DNA of 64,000 nt. Source: a virus. Under the pieces are notes generated by a model. The model saw nothing but the letters and a program-made list of their open reading frames with translations, was not told the DNA's origin and searched no databases. Position 1 is the stretch's first letter, and each line of letters starts with the position of its first letter. Position numbers and translations under genes: made by a program. Positions 432 to 17,422 of the stretch are shown here, one piece after another. The stretch is from the IMG/VR virus record IMGVR_UViG_3300037423_001547. One strand, given 5' to 3'.

Positions 432-668
432 GGGTGTGCGCCTCCTTCCGCAGGTAGCGGGGGGTTTCTGCCTCACGAGGAAGACTCTGACAGAAGAATG
501 CCTGCCGCGCAAGGCAGGTGTCAGGCAAGGCAGGTGCGAATTTCCAGCCGAATGCTTGTTCGATCCCGGGTGTGACCAGTGTTAATGCAGGTCAGTGGCC
601 GGATGGTGCACCTTCCTCGCGAGGCAGTCCCTAGCTACTGCCTACCTAGGCAGGTACTGTCTAGGGAC
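432..668. promoter_or_regulatory. divergent immunity-switch region with reiterated GGCAGG(T) operator-like elements
   Basis: AAGGCAGGTG at 511-520 and 527-536; TAGGCAGGTA at 647-656; CCTGCC-N6-GGCAGG at 501-518; 16-bp palindrome CTGCCTACCTAGGCAG at 638-653. Confidence 0.55.
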
Positions 669-1130
669 ATGACGGATGCCCCCCAGGGCCGCGTACAGCA
701 GTTCTTCGCGGTCGTCCTCCCCGCCCTCACAGAAGCCGGCTACACCGGCTACGGATCGCAGCAGCGCCTCGCCGACGCCACCGGCATGTCCCCCGGCACG
801 GTGTCCCGGCTCGTCCGCGGCAAGACGATTCCGGACATCCAGTTTTTCCCGGCCCTCGCCGAGGCGATTGGCATGTCCCCACTCAAGCTGCTCGTTCTCG
901 CGGGCGTCTTCCCCGAAGAGACGCTTGAGTCCCACCAGCCACTGTCCGAAACTAACCAGTCACAGGTAGGCTCCGAAGGAATCACTCCGGAGAAGGCTGC
1001 GGACCGGCTCGGCTTCCACGACGACGTCCGGCGCGCAATCTTCGTAGGATTCGTCGAATCCCTCAGAAAAACCGAACCCGAGGGCCCCGGCGAGACCAAG
1101 GACTCCGGAGACGCAGCAGCACAGATGTGA
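669..1130 (+). CDS. CI-like XRE-family HTH repressor candidate, 153 aa, no peptidase domain
   Basis: HTH QQRLADATGMSPGTVSRLVRGKTIP. Divergent to the cro-like gene and adjacent to int. ATG 669 has no SD, so the mRNA may be leaderless. ORF-track start 579 is the alternative. Confidence 0.75.
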   Translation: MTDAPQGRVQQFFAVVLPALTEAGYTGYGSQQRLADATGMSPGTVSRLVRGKTIPDIQFFPALAEAIGMSPLKLLVLAGVFPEETLESHQPLSETNQSQVGSEGITPEKAADRLGFHDDVRRAIFVGFVESLRKTEPEGPGETKDSGDAAAQM

Positions 1131-1137: not shown

Positions 1138-1698
1138 GTGCGGTGGATGAGTCTCACAGGCAGTACGCGGACCACAACGACGGCAGGCATAGCGCTCCTG
1201 GCCGCCGGCCTGGCTCTCTGCACCAGCGGAGCCATCCGCGACAGCCTCCCCCACGCCCTCGGCGGAACGTGCCTCACCACTGTCGCGCTCACACTGATCG
1301 CACTGACCCTCATCCGGCAATGGGTCAGTGACACGCGGCACGAGCGGAAAGACTTGGCTGCCGCACGCCACGACGCCGAGGCGCAGCAGCGTAAGTTCTT
1401 CGCTCTTCAGGCGGCTAACGAAGGTGAGATGGCCCGTTTCAAACGGGACATGAACATGGAGAAGGCCCGCATCGTCGAGACGCTCAGGGTTGAGCGGGAG
1501 GCGATGCGGGCCCAGTTCGAAGAGGAACGCCTGCAAGTCAGCCAGAACGCGTTCCGGATGGGCGTTGAGATGGAGCGGTCCGGGGCGCTGAGGGCCGTGA
1601 AGCCGGTCCAGCTCGACAATCTCATCCCGTTCCCGGAGCAGGCCTCCCGAGCGTCGGAGCATCAGCGGTCTCGGGAGCACGGAGTGGTCGGTCCCTGA
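1138..1698 (+). CDS. membrane protein, two N-terminal TM helices plus a coiled-coil tail, 186 aa
   Basis: Hydrophobic AGIALLAAGLALC and LTTVALTLIALTLI, then a charged heptad-like region. Starts 7 nt after the repressor stop. Alternative ATG at 1147. The 3' end overlaps int by 77 nt (convergent). Confidence 0.6.
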   Translation: MRWMSLTGSTRTTTTAGIALLAAGLALCTSGAIRDSLPHALGGTCLTTVALTLIALTLIRQWVSDTRHERKDLAAARHDAEAQQRKFFALQAANEGEMARFKRDMNMEKARIVETLRVEREAMRAQFEEERLQVSQNAFRMGVEMERSGALRAVKPVQLDNLIPFPEQASRASEHQRSREHGVVGP

Positions 1699-3262
1699 AC
1701 CCTGGCTCTCCTGCAAACGCCAGCGTGACACGGCCGTCTTCAATTGTCCGGACAGTCGAACTACGCGCCTTCCACAGCCGCACAGTCACCACCTGCCTTA
1801 TGACTTCACGCTTCTGCTCCAGCGACAGCGCCCGCACCGCTGGCCGCCCCTCCTCTTCCGGCGCACCGTTCCACACCACGTCCGGGTCCGGCGCGTTGAT
1901 GAGCGCCAGGAGCACGGGGTCCACACCAGTGATCTCGCGCAGCTTCTTCCGTTCGGCTTCCAGCCTCGGCACGAGCCTCTGCTCCAGCGAGGCCAGCGAG
2001 GCCGCAGAGAGCCTGAACCGCCCCGTCTCCTCGTCGTACTCCTCGGCGGTGCGTCGGGCCTCGGCGAGCTGCTCCTCGAAGGCGTTGATGCGGCGCTGTG
2101 CGGCCGCCATCTCGTCCTCGACAGCACCATCGTCGGGGATCAGAGCGGAGATGGCTTTGGACTTGTCGCGGAACCAGTTGACCACTGCTTCTTCGACGTA
2201 GGCATCGAGCCAGCGTTCCCGGATCGACGTGTCCTTCTTCTCACCGCACTCCAACTTCGGGCCTCTCCCGGCATTGGGGTTCCCCCTCAGCAGCGCGTGG
2301 TCGCCGCAGGGGCCGCACAGGGCAATCAGCGACAGGAGGTGTACGGGCTCAGAGCCGCGCTGCGTGCGCCGAGTTGGGTCCGTCAGCTTGGCCGTGACCC
2401 GGTTGAACATGGCCCGGCCTTCTGGGGTTTCGAGTCCACGGATCGGGGGCCATGTCGCCTTCTTCCAGTCCCCTCCGTTCTTCCGCTCTCCCAAGTACGC
2501 GCGGTTGAGGAGCATCAGCCGGACGTTACGTGTGGTCCACGGGCGGCCGTCCGTGCGGGCCGCTTCCGGTTCGCCGTTCAGCCAGCGGATGAGGGAGGCG
2601 ACGGAGTCCCCGCGATCGATGTGCACGAGCGACTGGTACACGAACGGGCCGGTCGTCTTGTTCTCATACTGGCGGACGCACCTGAGCTGTCCGTTGACGA
2701 CCTCGTAGTCGCGGCTGTAGCCGAACAGGAGCCTGCCGTGCGGGTCGCCGGCCGCGGCCGTGCGCTGGGCGGTGCGCACGTTGCGGTCCCGGATGTCGTC
2801 TGCCTCCCCTTCCGCATTGATGGCGTCCATGGCGGTTGCCCTGCGGTCGTCGCTGCGGCTGAGGTCGTAGACGGTGCCCTTGTAGCAGAGGAGGACGCCG
2901 GCGTGGAGGCAGGCGGCGCGGAGCCTGACGTAGGCCTCAAGGTCGCGGTAGTACCTGCTGGCTTCGTAGGCGACGACGATGCGGGTGATGCCGGGGCGGG
3001 TGGGGGTGGTTTCGATGGCTTCGAGGAGGTCTTCGAAGTCGTCGCGTGCGCGGGTGGCGTGGCGGGATGCTGAGAGGCCGAGGTCTTTGAACTCTTCGAC
3101 GATGCGCCAGCCGTAGTTGTGGCAGATTGCCCGTCCTGCGATGAGCTGGTCTTCGACGCTGTCTCCGCGTTTGTTGGGGTCGCGGGAGGCGCGTCCGTAG
3201 AGCAGTGCTTCGAACTCGGTGTTGGGGAGTACGAGGTGCAGGTATGACGGGTCGTAGGGCAT
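1622..3262 (-). CDS. int: large serine recombinase (phage integrase), 546 aa
   Basis: Resolvase-type catalytic domain with YGRASRD (nucleophile Ser), a recombinase domain, a Cys-containing zinc-ribbon region (CGPCG...LECGE) and a C-terminal coiled-coil. This is the phiC31/Bxb1-type architecture. Confidence 0.95.
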   Translation of the reverse strand: MPYDPSYLHLVLPNTEFEALLYGRASRDPNKRGDSVEDQLIAGRAICHNYGWRIVEEFKDLGLSASRHATRARDDFEDLLEAIETTPTRPGITRIVVAYEASRYYRDLEAYVRLRAACLHAGVLLCYKGTVYDLSRSDDRRATAMDAINAEGEADDIRDRNVRTAQRTAAAGDPHGRLLFGYSRDYEVVNGQLRCVRQYENKTTGPFVYQSLVHIDRGDSVASLIRWLNGEPEAARTDGRPWTTRNVRLMLLNRAYLGERKNGGDWKKATWPPIRGLETPEGRAMFNRVTAKLTDPTRRTQRGSEPVHLLSLIALCGPCGDHALLRGNPNAGRGPKLECGEKKDTSIRERWLDAYVEEAVVNWFRDKSKAISALIPDDGAVEDEMAAAQRRINAFEEQLAEARRTAEEYDEETGRFRLSAASLASLEQRLVPRLEAERKKLREITGVDPVLLALINAPDPDVVWNGAPEEEGRPAVRALSLEQKREVIRQVVTVRLWKARSSTVRTIEDGRVTLAFAGEPGFRDRPLRAPETADAPTLGRPAPGTG

Positions 3263-3350
3263 GCGGTGAAGGTACCGCCCTGTGGGGGATGTTAGCTACA
3301 GATTCGGGGGACAGTGTCGCTTAGGTTCACTGGTGCCGTTTCCTGGTTTG

Positions 3351-3385
3351 CCGGGTCCGCCGCGCGGGGGTGGTGGCGGACCCGG
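3351..3385 (-). terminator. hairpin with 11-bp perfect stem CCGGGTCCGCC/GGCGGACCCGG and 13-nt loop
   Basis: Lies 18 nt downstream of the stop of 3403..3609. No U-tract. Confidence 0.45.
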
Positions 3386-3402
3386 CGAACTGCATGGGGT
3401 GC

Positions 3403-3609
3403 TCAGTCGCCGTTGATTTCCTCGACGAGGTTCAGCATGTCGTCGAGTCGGCCGCGCAGCGTCTCGACGAGGAGGATGAGGCCGGCGGCGTCGAGTTGTG
3501 CGAGGTCTTCGGATCGGGCGTATTCGTAGTCTCTACGCGCGTAGTCGACGCGGGTGCGCTGGAGGTCGGTGAGGGGTCCCGGGGGGTGTGGGGACGGCTC
3601 ATCGGTCAT
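3403..3609 (-). CDS. hypothetical protein, 68 aa
   Basis: ATG at 3609 (MTDEPSPH...). Coding-type G/C3 bias. The ORF-track N-extension runs into AT-rich non-coding DNA. Confidence 0.5.
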   Translation of the reverse strand: MTDEPSPHPPGPLTDLQRTRVDYARRDYEYARSEDLAQLDAAGLILLVETLRGRLDDMLNLVEEINGD

Positions 3610-3735
3610 GGTGTGCCACCTGTTTGACGTGCTCATCAGTGGTTGCTGTAACGGCCAATAGTTGACTGTTGAAGTCATATTTTTCAATGGGGCAAGGATC
3701 ACGTCACTCGAACGGGCGTTTTAATCATTCCGTGA

Positions 3736-4050
3736 TTGCGTTCTGGCCGGAAAGCGCACTCACGATGTACCAGAGATGGTACAGACATTGATCATCGCGG
3801 GCAGCAGCGTGTACCCGTGCCATCCGATCCGCTGCCCGACTGGGTACTCACCCGCCGCCGGGCCATCGGAGATGCCGTCCGCGCAGCCCGCACCGCCAAG
3901 AAGCTCAGCCAGGAGACCTTAGGCGAGCTGACGGGCCTCGACCGCAAAACCGTCAACCGGATCGAGCAAGGCACACACCCCACGACCATCGACCGCCTCC
4001 TCCTCATCGCCGACGCGCTTGACACACCTCTCGCTGACCTCGTCAGGTGA
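3736..4050 (+). CDS. XRE-family HTH protein, up to 104 aa
   Basis: HTH LSQETLGELTGLDRKTVNRIEQG. Start uncertain: TTG 3736 or GTG 3817. Followed by an intrinsic terminator. Confidence 0.7.
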   Translation: MRSGRKAHSRCTRDGTDIDHRGQQRVPVPSDPLPDWVLTRRRAIGDAVRAARTAKKLSQETLGELTGLDRKTVNRIEQGTHPTTIDRLLLIADALDTPLADLVR

Positions 4051-4083
4051 CGGACCGCCTCTCGTTCTACGCGGGAGGGCGGG

Positions 4084-4114
4084 GCGTCCGTCGCGTCGGA
4101 CGCGGACTTTTTTT
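4084..4114 (+). terminator. rho-independent terminator
   Basis: GCGTCCG-TCGCGT-CGGACGC stem-loop followed by GGAC and a run of seven T, which is conspicuous in this GC-rich DNA. Confidence 0.75.
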
Positions 4115-4305
4115 GGCGGGCTCCCGTAGCACGCCTCACCAGCACGTCCGCTGACCCAGCCTGTCGGCCCGTACAGGGTGCGGACATAGACCGGCCCGCT
4201 GCAAGGGATCACGGCGGCGTGTCTACGTCATGTCGCAGGCTCGCCAACAGGAGGCCCCGCCCATCCGCCACGGGGGAGGCAGACGGACGGGGCCAGCCAG
4301 TGGTG

Positions 4306-4758
4306 CTACACGGCCGCCGGGACGGGCACGAGAGCACGAGCCTGCTCCATCAGTCCCGCGTCCTCAACCGCGAACCTGCCGGCCGTCACCCGCAGGTGCC
4401 CGTAGTAGGCGCTGTCGAGGTCGACCGTGCGGGTCATGTCCAGCGACCACGAGGCCTCGGGGACGTCGATCGTCCCGGCCTTACGGACAGTGCGGGAGCC
4501 CGAGCCGGTGCACGCGAGCCAGCATCCGGCGCGCTGCTCATGCTGGCCCTTCCACTCGCCGACGAACCCATGCCGGGCGGCCATCGCGAACAGATCACCC
4601 GGTTCGTGGACGTTACCTTCGACGGGGATGACGCCGAGGACGGCGGTGAGTCCGCCGTCGGTGGTGGTGTAGGCGAGGACGCAGCGGGAGCTGGTTTCCC
4701 AGTCGTGGAGGAACGGGAAGATCGTGACGCGGCCGTGTCCCTTGATGTCTCTCGCCAT
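4306..4758 (-). CDS. hypothetical protein, 150 aa
   Basis: ATG 4758 preceded by GAGAGGA. Coding bias. No motif recognised. Confidence 0.6.
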   Translation of the reverse strand: MARDIKGHGRVTIFPFLHDWETSSRCVLAYTTTDGGLTAVLGVIPVEGNVHEPGDLFAMAARHGFVGEWKGQHEQRAGCWLACTGSGSRTVRKAGTIDVPEASWSLDMTRTVDLDSAYYGHLRVTAGRFAVEDAGLMEQARALVPVPAAV

Positions 4759-4822
4759 CGCGTGGTCCTCTCTTCGGGGTGTCGGCCCCGCCACTGTACG
4801 GGCGGGGACCGACACACTTATC

Positions 4823-5299
4823 TCAGTTGGCGTGCCCGCAGTCCGGAGGGTTGCCCGGAACGCCGTCGTCTCCGCAGGTGTCCTCGCAGTCGACGCGGGT
4901 GTCCTGCCACAGTTCCGGCAGCACCACGTAGCCGGCGCGCTCGATCGCTTCCACGGTCAGTGGCAGCACCGTGGCGGCCGGAGGGTACGCAACCCCCTGG
5001 CTGTCGCACGGGTTGTGATGGACCTTCGGCCAGCCGTGTGAGTCGAAGAACTGGTCGTACTCGCGGGTGTACTCCAGGAAGGCGTGCCAGCCCATGTCGA
5101 CGGCTGGGCTCATGTAGAGCGTCGGGCTTCCCGCTGGCTTCTGCGCGCAGGTGGCCAGGTAGGCGAAGATCTGGTCGGTGACCTGGACCGCCAGTTCCCG
5201 GGCTATGCCGTTCTTGGTCATGACCCGTCGGATGAGCCGCTCGAAGAAGACGGGCTCTGCCAGAGATCGGCCGGTCACGCGTACTGCGGTTGCTGCCAT
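4823..5299 (-). CDS. hypothetical protein, 158 aa, Cys-rich acidic C-terminus
   Basis: ATG 5299 preceded by AAGGAGAGAG. The ORF-track 261-aa version is an unlikely extension. Contains a WHAFLEYTREY segment; family not recognised with confidence. Confidence 0.6.
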   Translation of the reverse strand: MAATAVRVTGRSLAEPVFFERLIRRVMTKNGIARELAVQVTDQIFAYLATCAQKPAGSPTLYMSPAVDMGWHAFLEYTREYDQFFDSHGWPKVHHNPCDSQGVAYPPAATVLPLTVEAIERAGYVVLPELWQDTRVDCEDTCGDDGVPGNPPDCGHAN

Positions 5300-5451
5300 G
5301 CTCTCTCCTTGCGTAGGTGGAGTAGTGCACGTGCGGTGGGGTCTGCCGCCGGGACGGGGTAGCACCGGCGGCAGACCCGCGGCCTCCCACGAGGGGGTCG
5401 GCGAGGCCGCCCGGCACCGTCTTGCCGCGGTGCCGAGTCTGAGAGGGGCTG

Positions 5452-5613
5452 TCAGTGGCCGCGCGGCCGTGTCGGGTACCGCTGATGCGGCACAGCCTGG
5501 CAGCGCTCCTTGTGGACGTACACGGTGTGGCCTGGGCCAGTTGGCGCGATGTGGTCGACCCGCCGGTATTCCTCGTCGGGCAGGATCGGCTGGTCGCAGC
5601 GGGCGCACACCAT
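5452..5613 (-). CDS. small zinc-ribbon-like protein, 53 aa
   Basis: CARC...HKERC pattern. ATGA overlap with the stop of 5613..5951. Confidence 0.5.
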   Translation of the reverse strand: MVCARCDQPILPDEEYRRVDHIAPTGPGHTVYVHKERCQAVPHQRYPTRPRGH

Positions 5614-5951
5614 CAGCGGCGTCCTTCCCGGATGAGGCGGCGCAGCCCGCGCCCGACCTGGCAGTGGTCGGCGTTGTCGACGCACTGTTCGCACAGGGGG
5701 CCGTGGTCGAGGAGCGCCCGGTACGCGGCCGTGCCGGTACAGGAGCGGCAGCCGCGAGGGAACCAGGAAACAGGCTCGCCGACCCGCTTGAACTTGCGTG
5801 GGCCGAGGTCGACCGCCGTGCTGGGGGTGAGGGCGATGCCGTCCCATACGCAGGTGTAGCCGCGTACCTGGTCCTGCGACAGGCTGTTTATCGGCGGCAG
5901 GTCCAGTAGGGCGAGCACCTCCGTCAGGGTGCTCGCGGTCTCGCTCGGCAT
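5613..5951 (-). CDS. hypothetical Cys-rich protein, 112 aa
   Basis: Complete ORF with coding bias. CRSC...CEQC...HC cysteine pattern. Confidence 0.55.
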   Translation of the reverse strand: MPSETASTLTEVLALLDLPPINSLSQDQVRGYTCVWDGIALTPSTAVDLGPRKFKRVGEPVSWFPRGCRSCTGTAAYRALLDHGPLCEQCVDNADHCQVGRGLRRLIREGRR

Positions 5952-6020
5952 GGGTCAGGCCTCCACGGTCACGGTGATCCGTCTCACACCACCGACCGTA
6001 GAAGCCGGGCAACGCCGCAA

Positions 6021-6040
6021 CGCTCACAAATCTGTGAGCG
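6021..6040 (-). terminator. short hairpin CGCTCACA-N4-TGTGAGCG
   Basis: 8-bp stem 10 nt downstream of the stop of the XRE-TPR gene. Confidence 0.35.
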
Positions 6041-6049
6041 CTGTGAGTG

Positions 6050-7234
6050 TTACAGGCCGACCCAGGCCGCCATGTGGTTCAGCGTGTCCGGCGTCCGACG
6101 GGCCACATGTACCAGCCCGCGGATCGTCTCCCGCGCGCCAGGGTGGTAGCGGGTCTGCTCCGGCGCCGCGTGACGGGCATCGACCAGCGACTGCAACGCC
6201 GCCTCCGTGTGCCCAGTCTCCATCTCCGTGCGGGCCCGGTCGATGAAGAAGTGGGCGCGGCGGCTGGTGGCGAGCGACGGCGGCAGCTTGATCCTGCGGG
6301 CCTGCGTCAGTGCGGCGTCGTAGTGACGCATCTCCACGGCCGCCGACATCCGGTGCAACATCACATTGGTCGGGCCGAACGACAGCCAGTGAACGTCGGA
6401 GGCGTCCCCGATCCGCTGCGCGATCTGCCGTGCCTCGGAGATGTGGCTGACGACGGTGCTCGTCTGCCGGGCCCGTGCTGCGATGACGGACGCCCCGAGG
6501 TGCAGCTGTCCCATGACCGCGTGCGCTTCGCGGGTGGGTTCGGCCTGCGCAACGGTTGTGTGCCCGGACGCGATGAGTCGCTGGCCGATGGTGTACTCGC
6601 CCTCCCGGAAGTAGACGAGGGCGCGCATGTACTGGCGGACCGCCCCCAAGCACGGGTCCGAAGCACGCTCGGCAGCCCACGCCATCCGGTCCAGGGCGAC
6701 CGCCGACAGATCGTAGTAGCCGAGCTTCACGCTGATGTCGTGGGCGGTCCGGTACGTCGAAGCCAGCGCCTGCCACAGCTCGGTCGACGGCATTGCCCAA
6801 GCAGTGTGCGTGAGTTCGGCGATCGCGCCGGGCAGTGCGCGGGCGGCGTTGCGGAGGTGGGTGGCGCGCACCTGCTCGCACAGCCGGTCCGCCTCCGTGA
6901 TGAGGACGTCGGCCGGCCGGGCGCGCAGGTCCGGGTTGGCGCCGAGGTCGTACAGGTCGAGGGCCTCGCGGATCGGGCGGACCAGTTCGGCGAGCCGGTC
7001 GCGTTGGAGTTCGGTCACGTAGGGCTGTCCCGTGAGGGTGGTGACGTCGACCTTCAGGGCGTGTGCTACGGCTGCGACGAAGTCGGCTGTGGCGGGGCGG
7101 GCGCCGCACTCCACTTGGTTGAGGAGGCTGTACGAGTAGGGGATGCGGTCGGCGAGTGAGCGTTGGGTGAGCCTGGCCAGTTTGCGTTGTTCGCGGATCC
7201 GCGCGCCGGTGTGGTCGTCGTCCAGTGTGGGCAT
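6050..7234 (-). CDS. XRE-family HTH regulator with a long helical-repeat (TPR-like) C-terminal domain, 394 aa
   Basis: N-terminal GARIREQRKLARLTQRSLADRIPYSYSLLNQVECGAR, then about 320 aa of helical repeat. GGAGA RBS before ATG 7234. Confidence 0.85.
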   Translation of the reverse strand: MPTLDDDHTGARIREQRKLARLTQRSLADRIPYSYSLLNQVECGARPATADFVAAVAHALKVDVTTLTGQPYVTELQRDRLAELVRPIREALDLYDLGANPDLRARPADVLITEADRLCEQVRATHLRNAARALPGAIAELTHTAWAMPSTELWQALASTYRTAHDISVKLGYYDLSAVALDRMAWAAERASDPCLGAVRQYMRALVYFREGEYTIGQRLIASGHTTVAQAEPTREAHAVMGQLHLGASVIAARARQTSTVVSHISEARQIAQRIGDASDVHWLSFGPTNVMLHRMSAAVEMRHYDAALTQARRIKLPPSLATSRRAHFFIDRARTEMETGHTEAALQSLVDARHAAPEQTRYHPGARETIRGLVHVARRTPDTLNHMAAWVGL

Positions 7235-7298
7235 ACTGGTCTCCGTTCTAAGCAGCCACTTGGAACAGTACCCACGCAGGGCCGTGTGGGTGATGCTT

Positions 7299-7329
7299 CC
7301 GCCCCCGACTCCGCCCGGAGCGGGGGCGG
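7299..7329 (+). promoter_or_regulatory. GC hairpin in the flavoprotein 5' region
   Basis: CCGCCCCCGACTCCG-CC-CGGAGCGGGGGCGG (one bulge), ending 22 nt before ATG 7352. Confidence 0.4.
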
Positions 7330-7351
7330 TTGCATGTGATCAGATACCGGC

Positions 7352-7900
7352 ATGACCTCTCGTGTGCTGTACCTGTTCGGCTCGGCGGCTCCTCCGGTCT
7401 TCGACATCGCGGCCGTGATCCGGGATGCGCAAGCGCGTGGGTTCGACGTGTGCCTCGGCCTCACTCCCACCGCGAACCGGTGGCTCAGCGAGCAGCTCCC
7501 CGACCTGGAGGAGCTGACCGGGCGCCCAGTCCGGTCCGAGTACAAGCTGCCCGGCGAGCCCGACGTGTGGCCCAAGGCCGACGTCATCGCCGTCGCGCCG
7601 GCGACCTTCAACACGGTCAACGCGTGGGCGCTCGGCATCACCCGGGACTTCGTTGTCGGTGTCGTCGCCGAGGGCATCGGCAAGGGGATCCCGATCGTGA
7701 CCATGCCCTGTGTGAACGCGGCCTACGTGCAGCACCGGCAGTTCGAGCGGAGCGTCGGCGAGCTACGGGAGATGGGGGTGCAGGTGCTGTACGGGGAGGG
7801 CGGGTTCGTGCCGAACCTGCCGGGCCAGGGAAAGCCGAAGGAGTATCCGTGGCACCTGGTGCTCGACACGGCAGAGCGGATTGCGGCGTCAACCCCGTAG
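7352..7900 (+). CDS. flavoprotein of the HFCD / phosphopantothenoylcysteine-decarboxylase-like family, 182 aa
   Basis: Rossmann-like start VLYLFGSAAP and the family clamp motif VAPATFNTVNAWALGI (PASANT-type). Size typical of EpiD/CoaC-type proteins. Confidence 0.8.
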   Translation: MTSRVLYLFGSAAPPVFDIAAVIRDAQARGFDVCLGLTPTANRWLSEQLPDLEELTGRPVRSEYKLPGEPDVWPKADVIAVAPATFNTVNAWALGITRDFVVGVVAEGIGKGIPIVTMPCVNAAYVQHRQFERSVGELREMGVQVLYGEGGFVPNLPGQGKPKEYPWHLVLDTAERIAASTP

Positions 7901-7909
7901 GCTTGGATC

Positions 7910-8092
7910 ATGTCCCCCGACCCTGCCGTCTCTGGCACCGTGCGGTCGTCTGTCGTCCTCAACGCGCAGATACGGGCCCTGTGGCAGCGTGGCGGCGGCC
8001 AGTTGGGGACAGCCGAGCTGCGGGCGGAGTACGAGCGGCTTGTCGTCGAATGGGCGGCAGCAGTACGGCGCGAGACGGCTGAGGCGGTGTGA
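7910..8092 (+). CDS. hypothetical protein, 60 aa
   Basis: Starts 10 nt after the flavoprotein stop. Coding bias only. Confidence 0.4.
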   Translation: MSPDPAVSGTVRSSVVLNAQIRALWQRGGGQLGTAELRAEYERLVVEWAAAVRRETAEAV

Positions 8093-8104
8093 CGAAGCCC
8101 CGCC

Positions 8105-8121
8105 TCCGCCGCGCGGGCGGA
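8105..8121. terminator. short bidirectional hairpin TCCGCC-N5-GGCGGA
   Basis: Sits between convergent genes 7910..8092 and 8123..8323. Confidence 0.35.
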
Positions 8122-8122
8122 C

Positions 8123-8323
8123 TCACGGCTCCTCAGGCCACACAGACAGCTCCTCGCCGGTCTCCTCATCGACGAGGGCGACCCGGACGCCGGGCATGCT
8201 GCCGTACTCGCCGACCCAGCCGATGAACTTCCGGCGGGCGACTTCCTCGCTACCCCACCAGCCGTGCTGCACTGGCCGGCCGTGCGTGGCGAGCAGGAGG
8301 TGGTAGCGGCCTGGGCTGGTCAT
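8123..8323 (-). CDS. hypothetical protein, 66 aa
   Basis: ATGA overlap with the upstream LexA-like gene. No motif recognised. Confidence 0.5.
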   Translation of the reverse strand: MTSPGRYHLLLATHGRPVQHGWWGSEEVARRKFIGWVGEYGSMPGVRVALVDEETGEELSVWPEEP

Positions 8324-8538
8324 GCGAGCCGGATCCCGCGGTAGCGGCCGGGCTCGCGGACGATCGCGCGCTTCGCTTCGAGTTCGACGAGCTGGTAGTG
8401 GACGGAGGCGCGGCTACGCAGGCCGACGGCGGCGCCGATCTCCCGGATGCTCGGTGCTTCGCCGTGGTCGGTGATGTGCTGGCGGATGGCGCGGAGGATG
8501 CGCTCCTGGGTGTCGGTGAGGTGGTCTACGCGGTGCAT
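8320..8538 (-). CDS. LexA N-terminal DNA-binding-domain-only protein (winged helix), 72 aa
   Basis: LTDTQERILRAIRQHITDHGEAPSIREIGAAVGLRSRASVHYQLVELEAKRAIVREP matches the LexA DBD pattern (LT..Q..IL...G.PSIREIG.AVGL.S.SSV). No cleavage site and no S24 peptidase domain. Confidence 0.8.
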   Translation of the reverse strand: MHRVDHLTDTQERILRAIRQHITDHGEAPSIREIGAAVGLRSRASVHYQLVELEAKRAIVREPGRYRGIRLA

Positions 8539-8546
8539 GCAACGAC

Positions 8547-8562
8547 TAGAGCACGTGTTCGA
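8547..8562 (-). promoter_or_regulatory. SOS-box-like site TCGAAC-ACGT-GCTCTA
   Basis: Minus-strand reading: left half matches the actinobacterial LexA box TCGAAC-N4-GTTCGA perfectly, right half 4/6. It abuts a TAAAAT -10-like hexamer (8563-8568) and lies 8 nt before ATG 8538. Confidence 0.5.
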
Positions 8563-8621
8563 ATTTTATGGCAAGGTGACGCACCAGGCAGGGCCCCGCA
8601 CGCGCGCGGCGGACGGGGCCC

Positions 8622-8900
8622 TCACCGGTTGCTGATCGTGAGGTGGATCGACCGCTCGTCGATCAGCCCCCCGACAGTGGTGATCTGGCAGACCAGCGTG
8701 TACGCGCTGTCGACCGTCCCACCCGACACCCGCTGAGTCACCACCGTGCCCGTCACAACAGGCGCCCCGACAGCAGTAAGCCCGGCAGGCACGGTGACCG
8801 TCGCAGAACTGATCGTGTCAGCGACCTCCGCGAGCCACGCCGACCAGTCCCAGGTGTAATCCAGCAGCGCGGAAGGATCCTTGACGTAACTGTCGGCCAC
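8622..8900 (-). CDS. putative fibre-tail adaptor-like virion protein, 92 aa
   Basis: The pattern DP.ALLDYTWDWS.WL...DTI...TV...GLT...........V.GGT.....Y.L...ITT.GG....RSI.L.I resembles small phage fibre-adaptor proteins. Assignment is from memory only. Confidence 0.5.
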   Translation of the reverse strand: MADSYVKDPSALLDYTWDWSAWLAEVADTISSATVTVPAGLTAVGAPVVTGTVVTQRVSGGTVDSAYTLVCQITTVGGLIDERSIHLTISNR

Positions 8901-8905
8901 GCGAC

Positions 8906-9970
8906 CTACCTCCGGATTATCAGGGTTCGCGGCTCGGCAGCCACGGCCAGGGTTCGGGATTCGGCGGCCACAGTCAGGCGCCGCCGCTCGGCGGGAATCA
9001 TGAGGGTGCGCTCCGGGCTGGGCACGGTGGTGGACGGCACGGTGAGCGGGCGCGCCGTGTCGACCTCCAGTGCGGGCGTCAGAACCGCCGTCTTGACGCC
9101 TACGAGGGGTAGTGCCGTCTCCACGGATCCGGCGGCGGCCAGCGTCGCCGTGACAGTCGACGCGAGCGGCTGGGCGGCCTCGACGGATCCGGCTGCCCCG
9201 AGCGCACCTGCCTTCACGCCGACGAGGGCCTGCGCGGTGTCCTGTTCGACAACCGGTACGAGAGTAGCGGTCTTGGTACCGACGAGCGCCTGCGCGCCGT
9301 CGGTCTCCGAGGCGATGCCGAGCGTGACTGTCTTGCTGGCGACCAGTTGCTGCGCTGCCTCGGTGGCGGATGCGACGCTGAGCGTTGTCGTCTTGCTGCC
9401 GGTCAGCGTCTGTGCGGTCTCGGTGGCGGACGCGATGCCGAGGGTCGCGCCGTTGACCACATCCGCGGCGGTGAAGTCATCGAAGCGAAGGGAGGACGTG
9501 GATTCAGCGCGGACGCCGACGCTGGTGCCGGTCGTGACAGCCGAGTCGGTGACGGAGATCCGCAGGGTCCCGTTGATGTACCCCTTGATCGCGGTCCCGA
9601 CGACTTGAAGTTTCACGACGTCGCCCGCTACGGCGGCCGCGGCGTAACTGCCGATGCTGGTGAAGCTGCCGCCGACCACCGAGAAGAGGTTCCACGAGGT
9701 GCCGTCGTTACGGAGCAAGTAGCCCTGGGTGATGTTCGCGTTGCCTCTGGCCCATACGCCGTGGCTGACGGCTGCTGTGGCGGCGATGGTCATCTGGACT
9801 GAGTGGTCGGAAGTGGCCATCGCTCCGGCAGCGCGCAGGATGATCGTGCCGCCCGCCGAGCCGCTGCTGAGTTGGTTGGAGATGATCGACCAGTCGCCGG
9901 ACACCTCAACCCACCCGGCCCCCAGGTCGGTGGAGTTGGCGCGGTTGAAGTCGTCGCTGAAGCTGGCCAC
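8906..9970 (-). CDS. minor tail / fibre-like protein: LamG (concanavalin-like) N-domain plus tandem 20-aa repeats, 354 aa
   Basis: N-terminal FSDDFNRANSTDLGAGWVEVSGDWSI... is typical of actinophage minor tail jelly-roll domains. Followed by about 6.8 repeats of TLGIASATETAQ.LVG.KT. Confidence 0.75.
   Translation of the reverse strand: MASFSDDFNRANSTDLGAGWVEVSGDWSIISNQLSSGSAGGTIILRAAGAMATSDHSVQMTIAATAAVSHGVWARGNANITQGYLLRNDGTSWNLFSVVGGSFTSIGSYAAAAVAGDVVKLQVVGTAIKGYINGTLRISVTDSAVTTGTSVGVRAESTSSLRFDDFTAADVVNGATLGIASATETAQTLTGSKTTTLSVASATEAAQQLVASKTVTLGIASETDGAQALVGTKTATLVPVVEQDTAQALVGVKAGALGAAGSVEAAQPLASTVTATLAAAGSVETALPLVGVKTAVLTPALEVDTARPLTVPSTTVPSPERTLMIPAERRRLTVAAESRTLAVAAEPRTLIIRR
9038..9445 (-). 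repeat. about 6.8 tandem 60-bp (20-codon) coding repeats
   Basis: aa 176-311 of the 8906..9970 product: TLGIASATETAQTLTGSKTT / TLSVASATEAAQQLVASKTV / TLGIASETDGAQALVGTKTA and so on. Confidence 0.85.
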
Positions 9971-11390: not shown

Positions 11391-11657
11391 TCAGACCCGG
11401 GGAGCGGAAGAAGCGGAGTTGGTGAAGCCGATCCCGCGGGCCAGCAGCCCCTTCACGAGGGACACGACAGCGGCGACCCCGGCCGTGCCCACCGCCTGCC
11501 AGAAGCTGACGTTGAACATGTCCGCCGGGCCGGCGGCAAGGGCGACGCTGGCGACCGCGGCAAGGAAGGTCCAGATGACGCGTTCGGTGAGGTCGATGGC
11601 GTAGGTCTTGGCGGTCTTCACGATCGTGTTGACGTCGGGCAGGGATGGAGTGGACAT
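11391..11657 (-). CDS. holin candidate, two TM segments, 88 aa
   Basis: Immediately downstream of the endolysin. TM segments VIWTFLAAVASVALAA and AVGTAGVAAVVSLVKGLLA. Resembles r1t-type holins. Confidence 0.7.
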   Translation of the reverse strand: MSTPSLPDVNTIVKTAKTYAIDLTERVIWTFLAAVASVALAAGPADMFNVSFWQAVGTAGVAAVVSLVKGLLARGIGFTNSASSAPRV

Positions 11658-11690: not shown

Positions 11691-12635
11691 TTACTGGGCG
11701 AGGCGCGCGGCGAGTTTGGCCGCGACCTTCTCTGCGATCTGTTCGGCGAGTGCCGGGTTCGCGGCGACCGCTGCGGCGAGCGCCGTGATCTGCGCGTCCG
11801 ACACGACCGGCGTCGTCAGCGTGTCGACCTTCTTCGCGAGCTCGCGCAGGCGGGTGTTGGTGTCCTTGAGGTAGGACTGGGGCTGCCAGGTCGTGTTGGT
11901 GGCCGCGTCCGGCGCATCCGGCGGGGCGGCGACCTGGTCGGTCTTCCAGACGGCGTCGTAGATGTCGGCCTTGGTGATTCCGGCCATGGGGTCCTCTTCC
12001 TGGGTGGGTCCTGCACGGAGGGTGGAGGCCACGTCGGAGCGGACCGCAGGCATGGCCATGATCTTGCCCGGGGCGTAGCCGGGGTCCCACTTGTCGTCGG
12101 ACCATTCGCCGTGCGCGATGACCGAGCGTTCCGTCCAGCCGTGGAAATCGAGGACCGCCGCCGACAACCGGCGGGCCGCCGCATACTGCGCCGCGCTCAT
12201 CTCATGCGATCCGCTGTACTGGATCTCGACGCCGTAGAAGTGGGCGTTGCCGTCCACCCCGTCGCTGTTGCCGCGCGTCGGGTGCAACTGGCCCGTGTAG
12301 TCCTCGTTGATGACGTGCTGCAGCACCGCCGGGTCGCCGCCGCCAGCGTGGTTCGCTCGGCCCCAGCCGATCAGGTAGACGGTGCCGTCGGCGCCGATGG
12401 AGAAGTGGCAGAGCGGGCCCGGCAGGTCGGAGAGTCCGTTGTAGAGGGTGCCTGCGGCGTAGGCCTTGGCGTCTTTCACGTCGGCGCCGGTGTGGTGCCA
12501 GATGAAGCCGTTGACCGGCCCCCACGCGCCCTTGCTGTTGCGGTTGTGGGTGGCCCAGCCGGAGATCTCGACGTACCGGAGACCCCACTTCTTCAGCTGG
12601 GTGACGGCCTCCGTGGCCGTCATCGGGGTCGCCAT
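11691..12635 (-). CDS. endolysin, N-acetylmuramoyl-L-alanine amidase (PGRP/Amidase_2 type), 314 aa
   Basis: WHHTG...GPLCHF.IG.DG.VYLIGWGRANHAG...HFYGVEI...IAHGEW...K.DPG motif series. ATG 12635 preceded by GGAG. The ORF-track start 12734 lies inside the regulatory motif. Confidence 0.9.
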   Translation of the reverse strand: MATPMTATEAVTQLKKWGLRYVEISGWATHNRNSKGAWGPVNGFIWHHTGADVKDAKAYAAGTLYNGLSDLPGPLCHFSIGADGTVYLIGWGRANHAGGGDPAVLQHVINEDYTGQLHPTRGNSDGVDGNAHFYGVEIQYSGSHEMSAAQYAAARRLSAAVLDFHGWTERSVIAHGEWSDDKWDPGYAPGKIMAMPAVRSDVASTLRAGPTQEEDPMAGITKADIYDAVWKTDQVAAPPDAPDAATNTTWQPQSYLKDTNTRLRELAKKVDTLTTPVVSDAQITALAAAVAANPALAEQIAEKVAAKLAARLAQ

Positions 12636-12710
12636 CTCAGGCTCCGTTCGCGCTGGCGTGGCGGGCGAGTGACGATTCCGCGGGCATGCTGGCCTCCCAC
12701 AGGCTAGGTT

Positions 12711-12726
12711 CCTTTGAATCGTAGCC
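12711..12726 (-). promoter_or_regulatory. late-gene motif copy (minus strand GGCTACGATTCAAAGG)
   Basis: AT-rich 15-mer shared with 37112..37126 and 39609..39623. Lies 23 nt before an RBS-preceded ATG (12687). Confidence 0.5.
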
Positions 12727-12742
12727 TGTAGCACCCCATTGA

Positions 12743-12877: not shown

Positions 12878-13615
12878 ATGCATGACCCGCTCACCGTCGC
12901 GTTCGAGATCCGCCGCCCCTGGCCGGAGCGCTCCACCCTCCCCGCCGCAGGCGACAAGGCCGCGCGCTGGCGCATCCGCCTCCACCACGACTGTGGCACC
13001 TGGTGCGCCGACGACCCACCTCACAAGGGCGGCGCGTTCCCCTGGTGGAAGCCCTCCAGCTACAGCGCGTTCTGGCGCCTCGCAGGCCGGGACTACTACT
13101 TCCCGCCCGTGATCACCGTGTGGCACCGGGAGCCTGGTGGGCGTGACGGCCTGACGGTGTGCAGCAGACGTGTCCAGCGTCGCGACGGTACGTGGCGGCG
13201 CACGCGCGGCTGGCGTTGGCACATTCACCATTACAAGATCCAGTTGCGGCCCTTCCAGAAGTGGCGCCGACGCCTGCTCACCCGCTGCGCCTGGTGCGGT
13301 GGCCGCTCCGTGAAGGGCGACCAAGTCAACGTCTCCCACTCCTGGAACGGCTCGCGATCCCGCTGGTGGCAGGGCGAACGTGGCTTGTTCCACCGGGACT
13401 GCTCCCCGATCGAACGGGCCCACGCCACCTGCGTGTGCACGCGGCCCGTGCTGGACCACGACACCTACGGGAGGTGCGCCAGCTGCGGCCGGTTCCGGCC
13501 CTTCGGCCTCACCGACGCCAACCTCGCCCGCGCCCGCGACCTCCAGACCATCCCGAAGGGCAGCCGCCGCGCCGACGCCGAGGAGAAGCCCGTGGCGGAC
13601 GGGGACGAGTCGTGA
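12878..13615 (+). CDS. hypothetical Trp/Arg/Cys-rich protein, 245 aa
   Basis: ATG preceded by GCAGGAG. First gene of the plus-strand island. CAWCGG...FHRDC and CASCG cysteine pairs. No family recognised. Confidence 0.65.
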   Translation: MHDPLTVAFEIRRPWPERSTLPAAGDKAARWRIRLHHDCGTWCADDPPHKGGAFPWWKPSSYSAFWRLAGRDYYFPPVITVWHREPGGRDGLTVCSRRVQRRDGTWRRTRGWRWHIHHYKIQLRPFQKWRRRLLTRCAWCGGRSVKGDQVNVSHSWNGSRSRWWQGERGLFHRDCSPIERAHATCVCTRPVLDHDTYGRCASCGRFRPFGLTDANLARARDLQTIPKGSRRADAEEKPVADGDES

Positions 13616-13715
13616 GCTACCTGTGCGCCGCGTTGGCGTTCCTGTTCGCGTTCGTCGTCCTCGCCCCACACGCCGAAGTCCACGTAGAGCCCGTACCTGC
13701 CGCGTGGAGCGGCCG

Positions 13716-13874
13716 ATGAACACCGCCGTCACCATCACCGCGATCATCGCCGCCGTCGCCCTGCTGAACAGCGGCATCACCGCCCTACGCGACATCGCCA
13801 AAGCGAAACACCAGACCGTCACTAAGCACTGCAAGACCTGCACCTGCGACAACAGCAAGGAGTCAGAGGCATGA
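13716..13874 (+). CDS. small membrane protein, 52 aa
   Basis: TM VTITAIIAAVALLNSGI, then KHCKTCTC. Its stop overlaps the epimerase start. Confidence 0.45.
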   Translation: MNTAVTITAIIAAVALLNSGITALRDIAKAKHQTVTKHCKTCTCDNSKESEA

Positions 13875-15547
13875 AGGTTCTGATCACGGGTGGCAGCGGC
13901 TTCATCGCCTCATGGTGCCGCCGGGAACTCCTCGCGCGAGGCCACAGCGTGCTGGTCATGGACCACCAGGACCGCCGCCAGCACCTCGCAGACGGCGAGG
14001 AGTTCTTCCTCGGCGACGTCCGTGACGCAACCGCCGTCACCGAAGCCGCCGCCCACGTCGACGGGATCATCCACCTCGCCGCCGTCCTCGGCACCCAGGA
14101 GACCATCAGCAACCCGCGGCCCAGCGCCGAGACGAACATCCTCGGCAGCCTGAACGTCTTCGAGGCCGCCGTGCAGTACAACCTCCCTGCGGTCTATGCA
14201 GGGGTGGGGAACGCGTGGATGCGGGACCACGGAACCGGCTCCTACACGATCAGCAAGACGGCGGCCGAGGACTTCGTCCGCATGTTCAACGCCTACCGCA
14301 GCGGCCGTATCACGATCGTCCGCCCCGTCAACGCCTACGGGCCGGGGCAGAGCATCGCCGCCCCCTACGGCTGCGTCGATCCGAGCACACCCGTACTGTG
14401 CGCCGACCTCGTCTGGAGGCCGATCTCCAGCCTGCGGGAAGGTGACGAGATCGTCGGCATCGACGAGTACGCGCCAGCGAAGAAGCAGCGAAAGCTGCGT
14501 CGGTCCACCGTGACGGGCTCGTGGGCAACGCGAAAGCATGCCGTCCGTCTCCACTTCGACGACGGCCGGTCGGTCACCTGCTCGCTCGATCACCCCTGGC
14601 TCGCATCCTCACCGTCGGGGCAGATCCGCCAGTGGATCGAGGCGCGGAAGCTCCGCACAGGGGACCGCGTCGTGTGGGCCACGGATCAGACCTGGGACGC
14701 TGGGGACAGCCGTTCCCACGGCTACGTCTCTGGACTCCTCGACGGCGAGGGGCATGTAGGCGGCCACGGCCCGGTATTCACGCAGAACCCCGGCCCCGTG
14801 CTGGACGAGTACCTCTACCTCCTCAAAGAGTTCGGGTTCGAGCCCCAGACCCGGACGAAGGAGAACGGCCGGATCGTCGTGGACACGTCGGTCTCGGGAC
14901 TGACTTCACGACTTCGGCTGCTGGGCGAGTTCCGCCCCGTCCGTCTCCTTGCGAGGGCCTCGCAGCTCTGGGAAGACAAGGCGCCGAACGGCGGCCGGGC
15001 GACCATCACGGCCATCGAAGAGCTGGGCGAGACGGACCTGTGGGACGTCGAGACCACGTCGCACACCTACATCGCCAACGGGTTCGCGTCACACAACTCC
15101 AGCAAGGTCCGCAAGATCATGCCCGCCCTGACGTGCCGTGCGCTGACCGGTGCGGACATCGAGGTGTACGGCGACGGCACCCAGATCTCCGACTGCGTGT
15201 ACGTCGGCGACGTGGCGCGGACGTTCGTGACCGCGTTTGAGCACACCGCCGCGCACGGGCCGACGGAGAAGCCGGTGGAGGTCGGGCCGCTCACGTCGGT
15301 CACCGTCAACGACATCGCCCGCCTGGTCGCTGAGGAGGCCGCGCGGGTGACGGGGCGGGAGCCGGTCGGGTTGAAGCATCTGCCGATGCGGCCGGGTGAG
15401 GTCCCGAACGCTGTCGTCTCCTCCGACACCAGCACGCTGCAGCAGATCGGGATGACGGCCGCGGACTTCGTGCCGCTCGACGAGGGCATCCACCACACGG
15501 TCCGCTACTACGCCGAGCAGTGGCTCCCCGGCTACCTGGCCGCCTGA
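13871..15547 (+). CDS. NAD-dependent sugar epimerase/dehydratase (extended SDR) interrupted by an intein, 558-aa precursor
   Basis: GGSGFIAS Rossmann motif, catalytic YTISK (YxxxK) and NAYGPGQ. The exteins (167 + 149 aa) join into a normal 316-aa SDR. Confidence 0.9.
   Translation: MKVLITGGSGFIASWCRRELLARGHSVLVMDHQDRRQHLADGEEFFLGDVRDATAVTEAAAHVDGIIHLAAVLGTQETISNPRPSAETNILGSLNVFEAAVQYNLPAVYAGVGNAWMRDHGTGSYTISKTAAEDFVRMFNAYRSGRITIVRPVNAYGPGQSIAAPYGCVDPSTPVLCADLVWRPISSLREGDEIVGIDEYAPAKKQRKLRRSTVTGSWATRKHAVRLHFDDGRSVTCSLDHPWLASSPSGQIRQWIEARKLRTGDRVVWATDQTWDAGDSRSHGYVSGLLDGEGHVGGHGPVFTQNPGPVLDEYLYLLKEFGFEPQTRTKENGRIVVDTSVSGLTSRLRLLGEFRPVRLLARASQLWEDKAPNGGRATITAIEELGETDLWDVETTSHTYIANGFASHNSSKVRKIMPALTCRALTGADIEVYGDGTQISDCVYVGDVARTFVTAFEHTAAHGPTEKPVEVGPLTSVTVNDIARLVAEEAARVTGREPVGLKHLPMRPGEVPNAVVSSDTSTLQQIGMTAADFVPLDEGIHHTVRYYAEQWLPGYLAA
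14372..15097 (+). mobile_element. intein, 242 aa, with a single LAGLIDADG-like motif
   Basis: Starts with Cys1 (CVDPSTPVLCADL). Block-B-like SLDH. GYVSGLLDGEGHV. Ends ...YIANGFASHN followed by Ser(+1) at 15098. Confidence 0.85.
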
Positions 15548-15562
15548 ACGAAGGAGGCGGCC

Positions 15563-16165
15563 GTGGCCCGCTTGCAGATCCTGCAACTTCCCGAAGGCGC
15601 TGGCGACGACCGGCCGCCGTTCGTCCTCGTCATCGACCAGCACCAGCCGCAGCGCTACGCACTCGGCATCGGCGAGGACGAGCCCGAGATGGTCGACGAG
15701 TTCGCCGGCGTCGCCGAGCAGATCGGGGCCCGTGTCGTGTTGGTGTTCCAAGAGACCGTCGAGATCCCTGCGAATGAGACCGCCGTGCACGCGCAACCCC
15801 TGATGCGCGTCGCGGACTTCGCGGGGCTCGACGAGATCAAGCGGCTGACCGAAGAGCGTGACGAAGCCCGCCTGTGGGCCCGACACGGCTACGAGATCGG
15901 GCAACGCCACTGCGGCTGGTCCGACCACGGCGTCGCACCCGACTGGCTCACCGAAGGTTGGCCGCCCCACTTCGACGACTGCGAGCACTTCAAGCGTGCG
16001 GCGGACTACGACGAGGCGCTCACCCGCGTCCGCAACCTGCCCGAGGAGCCCAAGTTCATGGATGCCCTGCACTCCGACTCCGCTGGCTACCGGCACGGCT
16101 ACCGAGTGGCCATCGGCGATGCCAAGCGCGCCACCCGAGCCCGAGCCGCAGAGGACGGAGGCTGA
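15563..16165 (+). CDS. hypothetical protein, 200 aa
   Basis: GTG preceded by AAGGAGG. Coding bias. No motif recognised. Confidence 0.65.
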   Translation: MARLQILQLPEGAGDDRPPFVLVIDQHQPQRYALGIGEDEPEMVDEFAGVAEQIGARVVLVFQETVEIPANETAVHAQPLMRVADFAGLDEIKRLTEERDEARLWARHGYEIGQRHCGWSDHGVAPDWLTEGWPPHFDDCEHFKRAADYDEALTRVRNLPEEPKFMDALHSDSAGYRHGYRVAIGDAKRATRARAAEDGG

Positions 16166-16166
16166 C

Positions 16167-17180: not shown

Positions 17181-17422
17181 TCGCCCGCCTGACCTGGATC
17201 CCTGACAACGGCGAGAGCGAGACCCTCACCGTAGACATCGCAGCACCCTGGCTCGAAGAGTTCCGCTCCTTGATCGGCACGCCCGAGTGGGCAAGCAGCG
17301 AAGCCGTCATGTGGATCCCCTGCCGTACCCGCGATGACCAGCCCATGACGAAGCGTCTGTTCCGGCTCGCACGCATCATCGCACTCGAACCCGTCCCAGC
17401 TGCGGAGAGGTCGACGCCTTGA
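17177..17422 (+). CDS. hypothetical protein, 81 aa
   Basis: ATGA overlap with the glycosyltransferase stop. GCGGAGG RBS. Confidence 0.5.
   Translation: MIARLTWIPDNGESETLTVDIAAPWLEEFRSLIGTPEWASSEAVMWIPCRTRDDQPMTKRLFRLARIIALEPVPAAERSTP

Follow-up and report, generated by a model that had tools for sequence, protein, structure and literature searches.

A LexA DNA-binding-domain gene and its 66-aa partner behind a predicted SOS-box promoter in a Streptomyces-type temperate phage

A two-gene cassette encoding a LexA DNA-binding domain

The DNA stretch analyzed (hereafter the window; 64,000 nucleotides) is the IMG/VR virus record IMGVR_UViG_3300037423_001547, and its source is a temperate phage of the Streptomyces type. 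The G+C content is about 68%, G+C at third codon positions (GC3) is about 0.9 in the real genes, and the phage context is evident from integrase, lysis and structural genes. The minus strand carries a gene coding for a 72-amino acid (aa) protein (MHRVDHLTDTQERILRAIRQHITDHGEAPSIREIGAAVGLRSRASVHYQLVELEAKRAIVREPGRYRGIRLA) made by a LexA DNA-binding domain (DBD) only. The gene is preceded by a promoter region which, as read from the letters, holds an actinobacterial SOS box, and is followed by a second small gene, coding for a 66-aa protein. Coordinates of these and of all other features are collected in Table 1.

The original prediction, an earlier reading of the same DNA, took the 72-aa product for the N-terminal winged helix of LexA, and profile and structure searches agree. 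The PF01726 (LexA_DNA_bind) model is matched over positions 3-65 of 65 (E=5e-18; 65 bits, cutoff 23.7). The AlphaFold2 model (predicted local distance difference test score, pLDDT, 90.4) is wholly winged helix, with three helices and a two-strand wing. The best Foldseek matches are 1LEA and 3JSO (template modelling score, TM, 0.85-0.89; root mean square deviation 1.1-1.3 Å), and LexA DBDs of E. coli and Thermotoga are among the structures superposed in this TM range. The protein is 49% identical to the DBD of Streptomyces LexA, and GC3 of its gene is 0.90. The product had also been said to stop before the Ala-Gly cleavage site and the S24 peptidase/dimerisation domain, and it does end at residue 72. 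The match to TIGR00498 (lexA) is confined to positions 3-68 of 203 (59 bits against a cutoff of 110.95), and both cleavage site and S24 domain are hence absent. The next open reading frame, that of the 66-aa protein, showed no S24 similarity in Pfam and NCBIfam searches. Having neither cleavage site nor protease domain, the 72-aa protein should not be removable by the RecA route.

A search of 5.8 billion proteins yielded homologues in 265 clusters, nearly all from Streptomyces and almost all 72-74 aa long, labelled in databases as 'LexA family protein' or 'repressor LexA'. The median ratio of nonsynonymous to synonymous substitution rates (dN/dS) is 0.28 among 22 ungapped genes of the family, and the recognition helix, SRASVHYQL, is almost invariant. 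The truncation is thus, as judged from sequence comparison, ancestral and selected rather than the result of a recent mutation. Close homologues might have turned out to be full-length LexA proteins, an outcome contradicted by the lengths of the 265 clusters; a truncated pseudogene is ruled out by length conservation and dN/dS. The identical 72-aa protein is found, with unchanged neighbours, on 11 metagenome contigs of the Joint Genome Institute (JGI). Megablast of the cassette region against INPHARED found nothing, and a tblastn search for relatives in isolated phages retrieved only proteins of Firmicutes phages, about 40% identical, and no actinophage. A literature search returned no report on this Streptomyces LexA-DBD family, and the cassette family, of more than 260 protein clusters, appears to be uncharacterised.

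The 72-aa gene is not solitary, being the first of a conserved two-gene cassette. In a set of 104 full-length loci drawn from Streptomyces genomes and IMG/VR viral contigs, the 66-aa gene lies directly downstream of the LexA-DBD gene in 86, and the two genes are neighbours in 41 of 43 viral contigs. The overlap of the start codon of the second gene with the stop codon of the first (ATGA) suggests that the two are translationally coupled. The 66-aa protein is predicted by AlphaFold2 to adopt a beta-beta-alpha-beta-beta fold (pLDDT 89.3), and features an invariant GWW motif. Its homologues make 107 clusters, all from Streptomyces; a profile search with the family, in a library without names, collected 228 representative clusters, mostly of about 65-75 aa. 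No match to the 66-aa protein was found in Pfam, NCBIfam or PADLOC. Foldseek gave nothing significant in the Protein Data Bank (PDB), and matches in BFVD were to uncharacterised phage proteins only.

Elements unrelated to one another carry the cassette, be they prophages, plasmids or chromosomal islands. An endolysin gene precedes it by a few kb in several viral contigs, and in L131 it follows the same three tail-associated genes as in the window. A gene of the DUF6233 family lies upstream, in divergent orientation, in 75 of the 104 loci; the phage analyzed here has no DUF6233 gene. In Streptomyces genomes and plasmids, the cassette and the divergent DUF6233 gene are often accompanied by Ku, and sometimes by an ATP-dependent ligase nearby (L003-L082; L083, 9609-9947; L087, 24442-25930). 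In some loci the LexA-DBD gene is replaced by a gene for a Cys-rich protein, and the 66-aa gene is retained; in P0385, P0443 and P0495 the two are naturally fused, Cys-rich protein and 66-aa domain forming one chain. Persistence of the 66-aa gene when the first gene is swapped, and the Cys-rich fusions, suggest that the products are physically coupled.

The cassette promoter

The minus strand reads, in order, TTGCCA, TAAAAT (8568-8563), the box TCGAAC-ACGT-GCTCTA, GTCGTTGC and the ATG at 8538. Upstream regions of the family were reduced to 65 distinct sequences, the consensus of which is gcTTGCcc..aAAtTCGAACA.G.gcTCTAaT-(6-7 nt)-ATG. TTGC, TCGAACA and TCTAnT are invariant. TCGAAC is fixed at 24-25 nt from the start codon in 99 of the 104 full-length loci, and the ATG always lies 6-7 nt after TCTAnT, also when other genes make the cargo. 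No Shine-Dalgarno sequence was found before the cassette ATG or in the aligned upstream sequences. This arrangement probably denotes a sigma-70-type promoter, TTGCCA-18 nt-TCTAGT. The ATG being only 6 nt away from the -10-like hexamer, the transcript would be a leaderless mRNA starting at the ATG.

The original prediction had described the promoter as TAAAAT, box, eight nucleotides and ATG. The letters are as described; TAAAAT was considered and discarded as a -10 element, as it varies among the 65 upstream sequences, and abuts the conserved TTGCCA without a spacer. The box itself, with a perfect TCGAAC half and four of six positions in the second half, is where it had been placed. Compared with the motif of Streptomyces venezuelae LexA, tCGAAC-N4-GNNCGa (Stratton et al. 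2022, PMC9380542), the first half is perfect; in the second, G, C and A match and G15, a strong position of the consensus, is mismatched. The box lies inside the promoter spacer, between the conserved -35 and -10-like elements, and overlaps the latter, so that bound LexA would block RNA polymerase.

LexA binding at an identical plasmid site

The plasmid gene pvnz_37140 is listed by Stratton et al. (PMC9380542, Table 1) with the box TCGAACACGTGCTC. The corresponding module was located on NZ_CP018075.1 (GAATTCGAACACGTGCTCTAATCGAATTATG), and its box is identical to that of the window at 16 of 16 positions. The identical 16-mer site maps at 74157-74170 of the S. venezuelae plasmid pSVJI1. According to the supplement of the same paper, the summit of a LexA peak obtained by chromatin immunoprecipitation sequencing (ChIP-seq) falls at 74160, inside the box, with a log2 enrichment of 3.26. 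With mitomycin C, pvnz_37140 changes by +3.94 log2 units (about 15-fold), and the divergent DUF6233 gene by +2.38 (PMC9380542). No DBD-only homologue was found in the first 150 kb of the 158-kb pSVJI1, which argues that host LexA binds this module by itself. As the identical 16-mer is LexA-bound and the operon downstream of it is induced by mitomycin C on pSVJI1, control of the cassette promoter by host LexA is well supported by analogy, and the gene pair would very probably be made only after DNA damage.

The pvnz_37140-37135 operon shares with the cassette the whole box, the -10-like element and the ATG spacing. It is divergent from a DUF6233 gene, lies near Ku, and is bound by LexA in vivo and induced by mitomycin C. 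The two differ in cargo, as the plasmid operon encodes an 83-aa hypothetical protein and an ImuB-like Y-family polymerase fragment. Combinations of the module with other cargo are as follows. The module is followed by a Cys-rich 87-92-aa gene and then by the 66-aa gene in two IMG/VR contigs (L133, about 6615-7081; L135, 21-766). It precedes a pvnz_37140-like gene and then a LexA-DBD gene in L142 (2152-2580), a pvnz_37140-like gene and then an ImuB-like polymerase fragment in L087 (22900-24170). The pvnz_37140-like proteins encoded behind the module measure 69-83 aa, and in all modules with alternative cargo the ATG lies 6-7 nt after TCTAAT. The module thus seems to be a compact 38-bp, probably leaderless, LexA-controlled element, reused by mobile elements before different cargo; because of this reuse, it may serve for predicting SOS-regulated accessory genes of Streptomyces, and as a genetic tool.

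Other SOS-like boxes in the window

Sites with up to two mismatches to TCGAAC-N4-GTTCGA number five in the whole window against 2.5 expected, which is not significant (11 of 100 shuffles reach five). Intergenic DNA, 8.4 kb in total, holds three of the five against an expectation of 0.26 (P=0.0015 from 2000 dinucleotide shuffles). Bare TCGAAC occurs 51 times in the window.

The second box lies midway in a 207-nt intergenic region, where it had been noticed before, and its reported distance of 12 nt from a helix-turn-helix (HTH) gene starting at 3736 had to be revised. TTG 3736 was rejected as start in favor of GTG 3817, as the source contig carries a gene call of 77 aa, and homologues align from residue 1. 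The 3736-3816 interval has a GC3 of only some 44%, half the value of genes (about 88%). With GTG 3817 as the probable start, the box lies 109 nt upstream of the HTH gene. The 14-mer TCGAAC-N4-GTTT matches, at the specified positions, the lexA-2 box of S. venezuelae validated by surface plasmon resonance (SPR; TCGAACGTGTGTTT, PMC9380542). SOS boxes are found 130-150 nt upstream of homologues of the HTH gene in genomic loci. The 5' regions of these homologues also feature conserved CATGATCA...TGATCATG inverted repeats.

The third box resides between the cI-like and cro-like genes. Its 14-mer, TCGAAC-N4-ATTC, matches at the specified positions the SPR-validated recA box (TCGAACATCCATTC, PMC9380542). 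In L158, a related phage whose CI protein is 71% identical, the corresponding position holds CCGAAC-AAGC-GTTCGC, while the flanks have diverged. Location in the cI/cro region and conservation in a related phage make an SOS link to the lysis-lysogeny switch plausible. The CI-like repressor had been described as lacking a peptidase, and HTH_3 is indeed the only domain found, so that a direct role of host LexA in the switch is plausible too, as far as can be read from the boxes. The cI/cro intergenic region (432-668) also holds several GGCAGG(T) repeats, which are probably CI operators.

Comparison with known systems

The closest known case is gp6 of GIL01, a tectivirus of Bacillus thuringiensis (Fornelos et al. 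2018, PMC6182141). This LexA homologue, reduced to the DBD, is made from a LexA-repressed promoter, binds GaCACAnnTGTGaC rather than the LexA box, and activates the P3 promoter (PMC6182141). Both are proteins of temperate phages, of about 66-72 aa, consisting of the LexA winged helix only. Repression by host LexA is expected here from the box, and in both phages a small gene comes next (gp7 in GIL01). The two are homologous at the domain level, the family profile aligning to gp6 with an hhalign probability of 95.6% and 33% identity. Their origins appear to be independent, the phage protein being 49% identical to Streptomyces LexA against 33% to gp6. Gp6 lies in the early operon of a phage devoid of a repressor of its own, whereas a CI-like repressor is encoded here and the cassette comes after the lysis genes. 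The 66-aa partner is unrelated to gp7, to which it shows no similarity. The cassette has a dedicated, probably leaderless promoter with the box inside, and moves across prophages, plasmids and islands. An activator role and a target site of its own are established for gp6; for the phage protein they are hypothetical. Actinobacteria appear to have seen a separate capture of a truncated LexA homologue, which here travels as part of a mobile two-gene cassette.

Compared with Streptomyces LexA (TIGR00498), the DNA-binding fold is conserved, and an SOS box precedes the gene, as one does lexA. Missing are the cleavage site in the linker, the S24 domain with its Ser/Lys protease and dimerisation functions, and RecA-dependent inactivation; four residues of the recognition helix differ. 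LexA-controlled induction of phages with non-cleavable repressors is exemplified by Tum of coliphage 186, the Gifsy antirepressors, and RstR/LexA in CTXphi. The present phage resembles them in having a peptidase-less repressor, and SOS boxes before small phage genes and in the switch. It differs in that an antirepressor role is unsupported for either protein of the cassette, which occurs also outside prophages.

Proposed role of the cassette

It is fairly probable, in our judgement, that the cassette is a portable SOS-inducible two-gene operon, the 72-aa protein acting in the damage phase as a regulator of GAAC-type sites, and the 66-aa protein being its partner. As long as the DNA of a lysogen is undamaged, host LexA sitting on TCGAACACGTGCTCTA would block RNA polymerase, a step which is well supported. 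Upon damage, RecA would be activated, LexA would cleave itself and the promoter would fire, as suggested by LexA biology and by the published identical site, giving an mRNA, probably leaderless, with the ATG at its 5' end. From its sequence, this mRNA would encode a RecA-proof winged-helix protein of 72 aa, and the coupled 66-aa partner. The last step is the least certain. The 72-aa protein may be a DNA-binding regulator which persists through the damage phase, while LexA is absent. Its likeliest targets would be its own promoter, in a negative feedback, the box of the cI/cro region and that between the HTH and integrase genes, and by binding there it would adjust when induction takes place. 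The 66-aa protein would be a functional partner, possibly supplying in trans the oligomerisation otherwise ensured by the missing C-terminal domain of LexA. That the 72-aa protein is a mimic which occupies SOS boxes, as the original prediction had proposed, is possible.

Several observations weigh against this reading. The -10-like hexamer has a C in second position, poor for a housekeeping sigma factor, and a consensus scan found no canonical sigma-70 promoter in the 3300-9000 interval, so that the promoter has been recognized by conservation only. The recognition helix retains the S-x-x-S-V-x-x-Q-L-x-x-L-E-x-K pattern, yet SRASVHYQL differs from STSSVAHQL of Streptomyces LexA at four positions (T to R, S to A, A to H, H to Y), fixed in the family, two of which we take, through the alignment, to be base-contacting in E. 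coli LexA. Due to these differences, the target of the 72-aa protein may not be the SOS box. No covariation was found, across subfamilies, between the second half of the box and the recognition helix; as the helix is invariant while the half-site varies, covariation could not show which protein binds. We know of no dimerisation surface in a lone LexA DBD. The 66-aa protein lacks any informative homologue or structural match, and the sole fusion of a LexA DBD with a 66-aa domain (P0397) resembles a one-base frameshift across the ATGA overlap. Confirmation by SPR did not extend to the pSVJI1 site, where occupancy by LexA dropped little after mitomycin C, from 3.26 to 2.97 (PMC9380542). Gp6, which at 44% identity is about as distant from the LexA of its host as the 72-aa protein is from Streptomyces LexA, recognizes another palindrome, and works as an activator at a late promoter (PMC6182141).

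An alternative, less probable but of considerable weight, follows from the latter case. The 72-aa protein would be SOS-induced, and would have a DNA specificity of its own, differing from the LexA box; it would switch on, and not repress, particular promoters of the phage or element, as a delay relay from loss of LexA to a later step, in the way of gp6 at P3. Homology with gp6 speaks for this, and so do the changed helix residues, which include the family-invariant H46 and Y47. The cassette, in turn, moves among unrelated prophages, plasmids and islands, and a private target site would have to travel along. The only strongly conserved adjacent DNA, in the 65 upstream sequences, is the SOS-box promoter itself; a separate, conserved palindrome did not turn up near the cassette, which lies here downstream of late and lysis genes rather than in an early operon. 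It is rather doubtful that the two products make a split, RecA-proof analogue of LexA, in which the 66-aa protein dimerises the DBD, and the pair, after the loss of LexA, takes over GAAC-type SOS boxes, those of the phage switch and maybe also those of the host. If this were true, the SOS response and prophage induction would be subject to a portable brake, or timer, borne by mobile elements of Streptomyces. Another role envisaged in the original prediction, that of a poison subunit for host LexA, acting through heterodimers, is unlikely. The dimer interface of LexA resides in the C-terminal domain, which is missing from the phage protein.

A further reading that we find doubtful is a module made by an effector and its regulator, similar to toxin-antitoxin pairs or to SOS modulators, in which the 66-aa protein is the payload (for example a toxin, or a protein that modulates RecA, LexA or some other target in the host), and the LexA-DBD protein just an exchangeable partner or autoregulator. 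The format is suggestive, as two small overlapping genes, the DNA-binding one first, occur in several copies per genome and in mobile elements. The exchange of the first gene for that of the unrelated Cys-rich protein, the fusions of the latter with the 66-aa domain, and the DNA damage-related ImuB-like fragment found as cargo of the same promoter fit as well. Matches to toxin, antitoxin or defence families in Pfam, NCBIfam and PADLOC, and structural matches to known toxins in the PDB, were not found, and the 72-aa protein, winged helix throughout, has no extra segment that may neutralise a toxin. A known defence or type II toxin-antitoxin system was rejected on the same searches and for the lack of a toxin fold. 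It is hardly credible that the box is fortuitous, and the gene what is left of a decaying plasmid or phage lexA paralogue, devoid of function, although box-like sites are not significantly enriched over the window as a whole, bare TCGAAC is frequent, and the second half-site, 4/6 only, coincides with the -10 element. Length conservation in 265 clusters, a dN/dS of 0.28, a GC3 of 0.90, the register of the box, invariant in 99 of 104 loci, the enrichment in intergenic DNA, and the identical site bound by LexA in vivo on pSVJI1 all stand against chance or decay, which conservation and ChIP data already contradict.

Little is known, to our knowledge, of how prophages of Streptomyces detect DNA damage. 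A circuit open to testing can be read from the window, made by three SOS-type boxes and a LexA-like protein, predicted to be damage-induced, beyond the reach of RecA.

Gene order around the cassette

The cassette resides in the accessory, lysogeny-side arm of the phage, downstream of late and lysis genes (Table 1). The strong hairpin following the Gp77-like gene suggests that it is a transcription unit of its own, apart from the late/tail operon.

Table 1. Features of the window, listed by position
Feature	Position	Strand	Remarks
cro-like gene	201-431	-
Third SOS-like box, TCGAAC-AAGC-ATTCGG	548-563	-	cI/cro-like intergenic region
CI-like gene	669-1130	+	HTH_3 domain, no peptidase
Serine integrase	1622-3262		beyond accessory block
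Second SOS-like box, TCGAAC-GGGC-GTTTTA	3708-3723	+	divergent region, 68-aa/integrase genes versus 77-aa HTH gene
77-aa HTH_3 (Xre-type) regulator	3817-4050	+	HTH_3 E=1.8e-13; start at GTG 3817 probable
Convergent 60-aa gene	7910-8092	+	co-occurs with cassette in other Streptomyces elements
Conserved 66-aa partner gene	8123-8323	-	ATG overlaps stop of 72-aa gene (ATGA)
Stand-alone LexA-type winged-helix gene, 72 aa	8320-8538	-	first gene of cassette
-10-like hexamer TCTAGT	8545-8550	-	6 nt before ATG; overlaps second half of box
SOS box TCGAAC-ACGT-GCTCTA (TCGAACACGTGCTCTA)	8547-8562	-	predicted host LexA operator
-35-like hexamer TTGCCA	8569-8574	-	18 nt from -10-like hexamer
Terminator-like hairpin after Gp77-like gene	8584-8629	-	-37.4 kcal/mol, z=-3.3, 0/200 shuffles as stable
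Gp77-like gene	8622-8900		last of three small tail-associated genes between lysis cassette and LexA-DBD cassette
Holin-like gene	11391-11657		lysis cassette, after glycosylation block
Amidase gene	11691-12734		lysis cassette, after glycosylation block
Glycosylation block	12878-19537	+	after structural genes; opposite strand, between tail and lysis genes
Structural genes	~39.6-20.2 kb	-	after early genes, in minus-strand reading order

Ten genomic loci carry homologues of the convergent 60-aa gene, with relative position and orientation unchanged; the gene showed no family match in Pfam, NCBIfam and PADLOC searches. Between the cassette and the integrase gene are also encoded a flavoprotein (7352-7900, plus strand), CoaC/Dfp-like by a weak match, and a 394-aa HTH_31 protein (6050-7234, minus strand). 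The 3817-8538 accessory arm shares an ordered gene set, formed by the LexA-DBD gene, the 66-aa gene, the convergent 60-aa gene and the 77-aa HTH gene, with chromosomal islands and prophage ends of Streptomyces (L020, L030, L053, L058, L069). In the glycosylation block, a gene for a NAD-dependent epimerase/dehydratase (13871-15547, plus strand), which adjoins that of a group-1 glycosyltransferase (15858-17180), is apparently interrupted by an intein. The Epimerase model is matched as two stretches, the Intein_splicing match is weak, and LAGLIDADG_3 is matched with E=2.6e-5.

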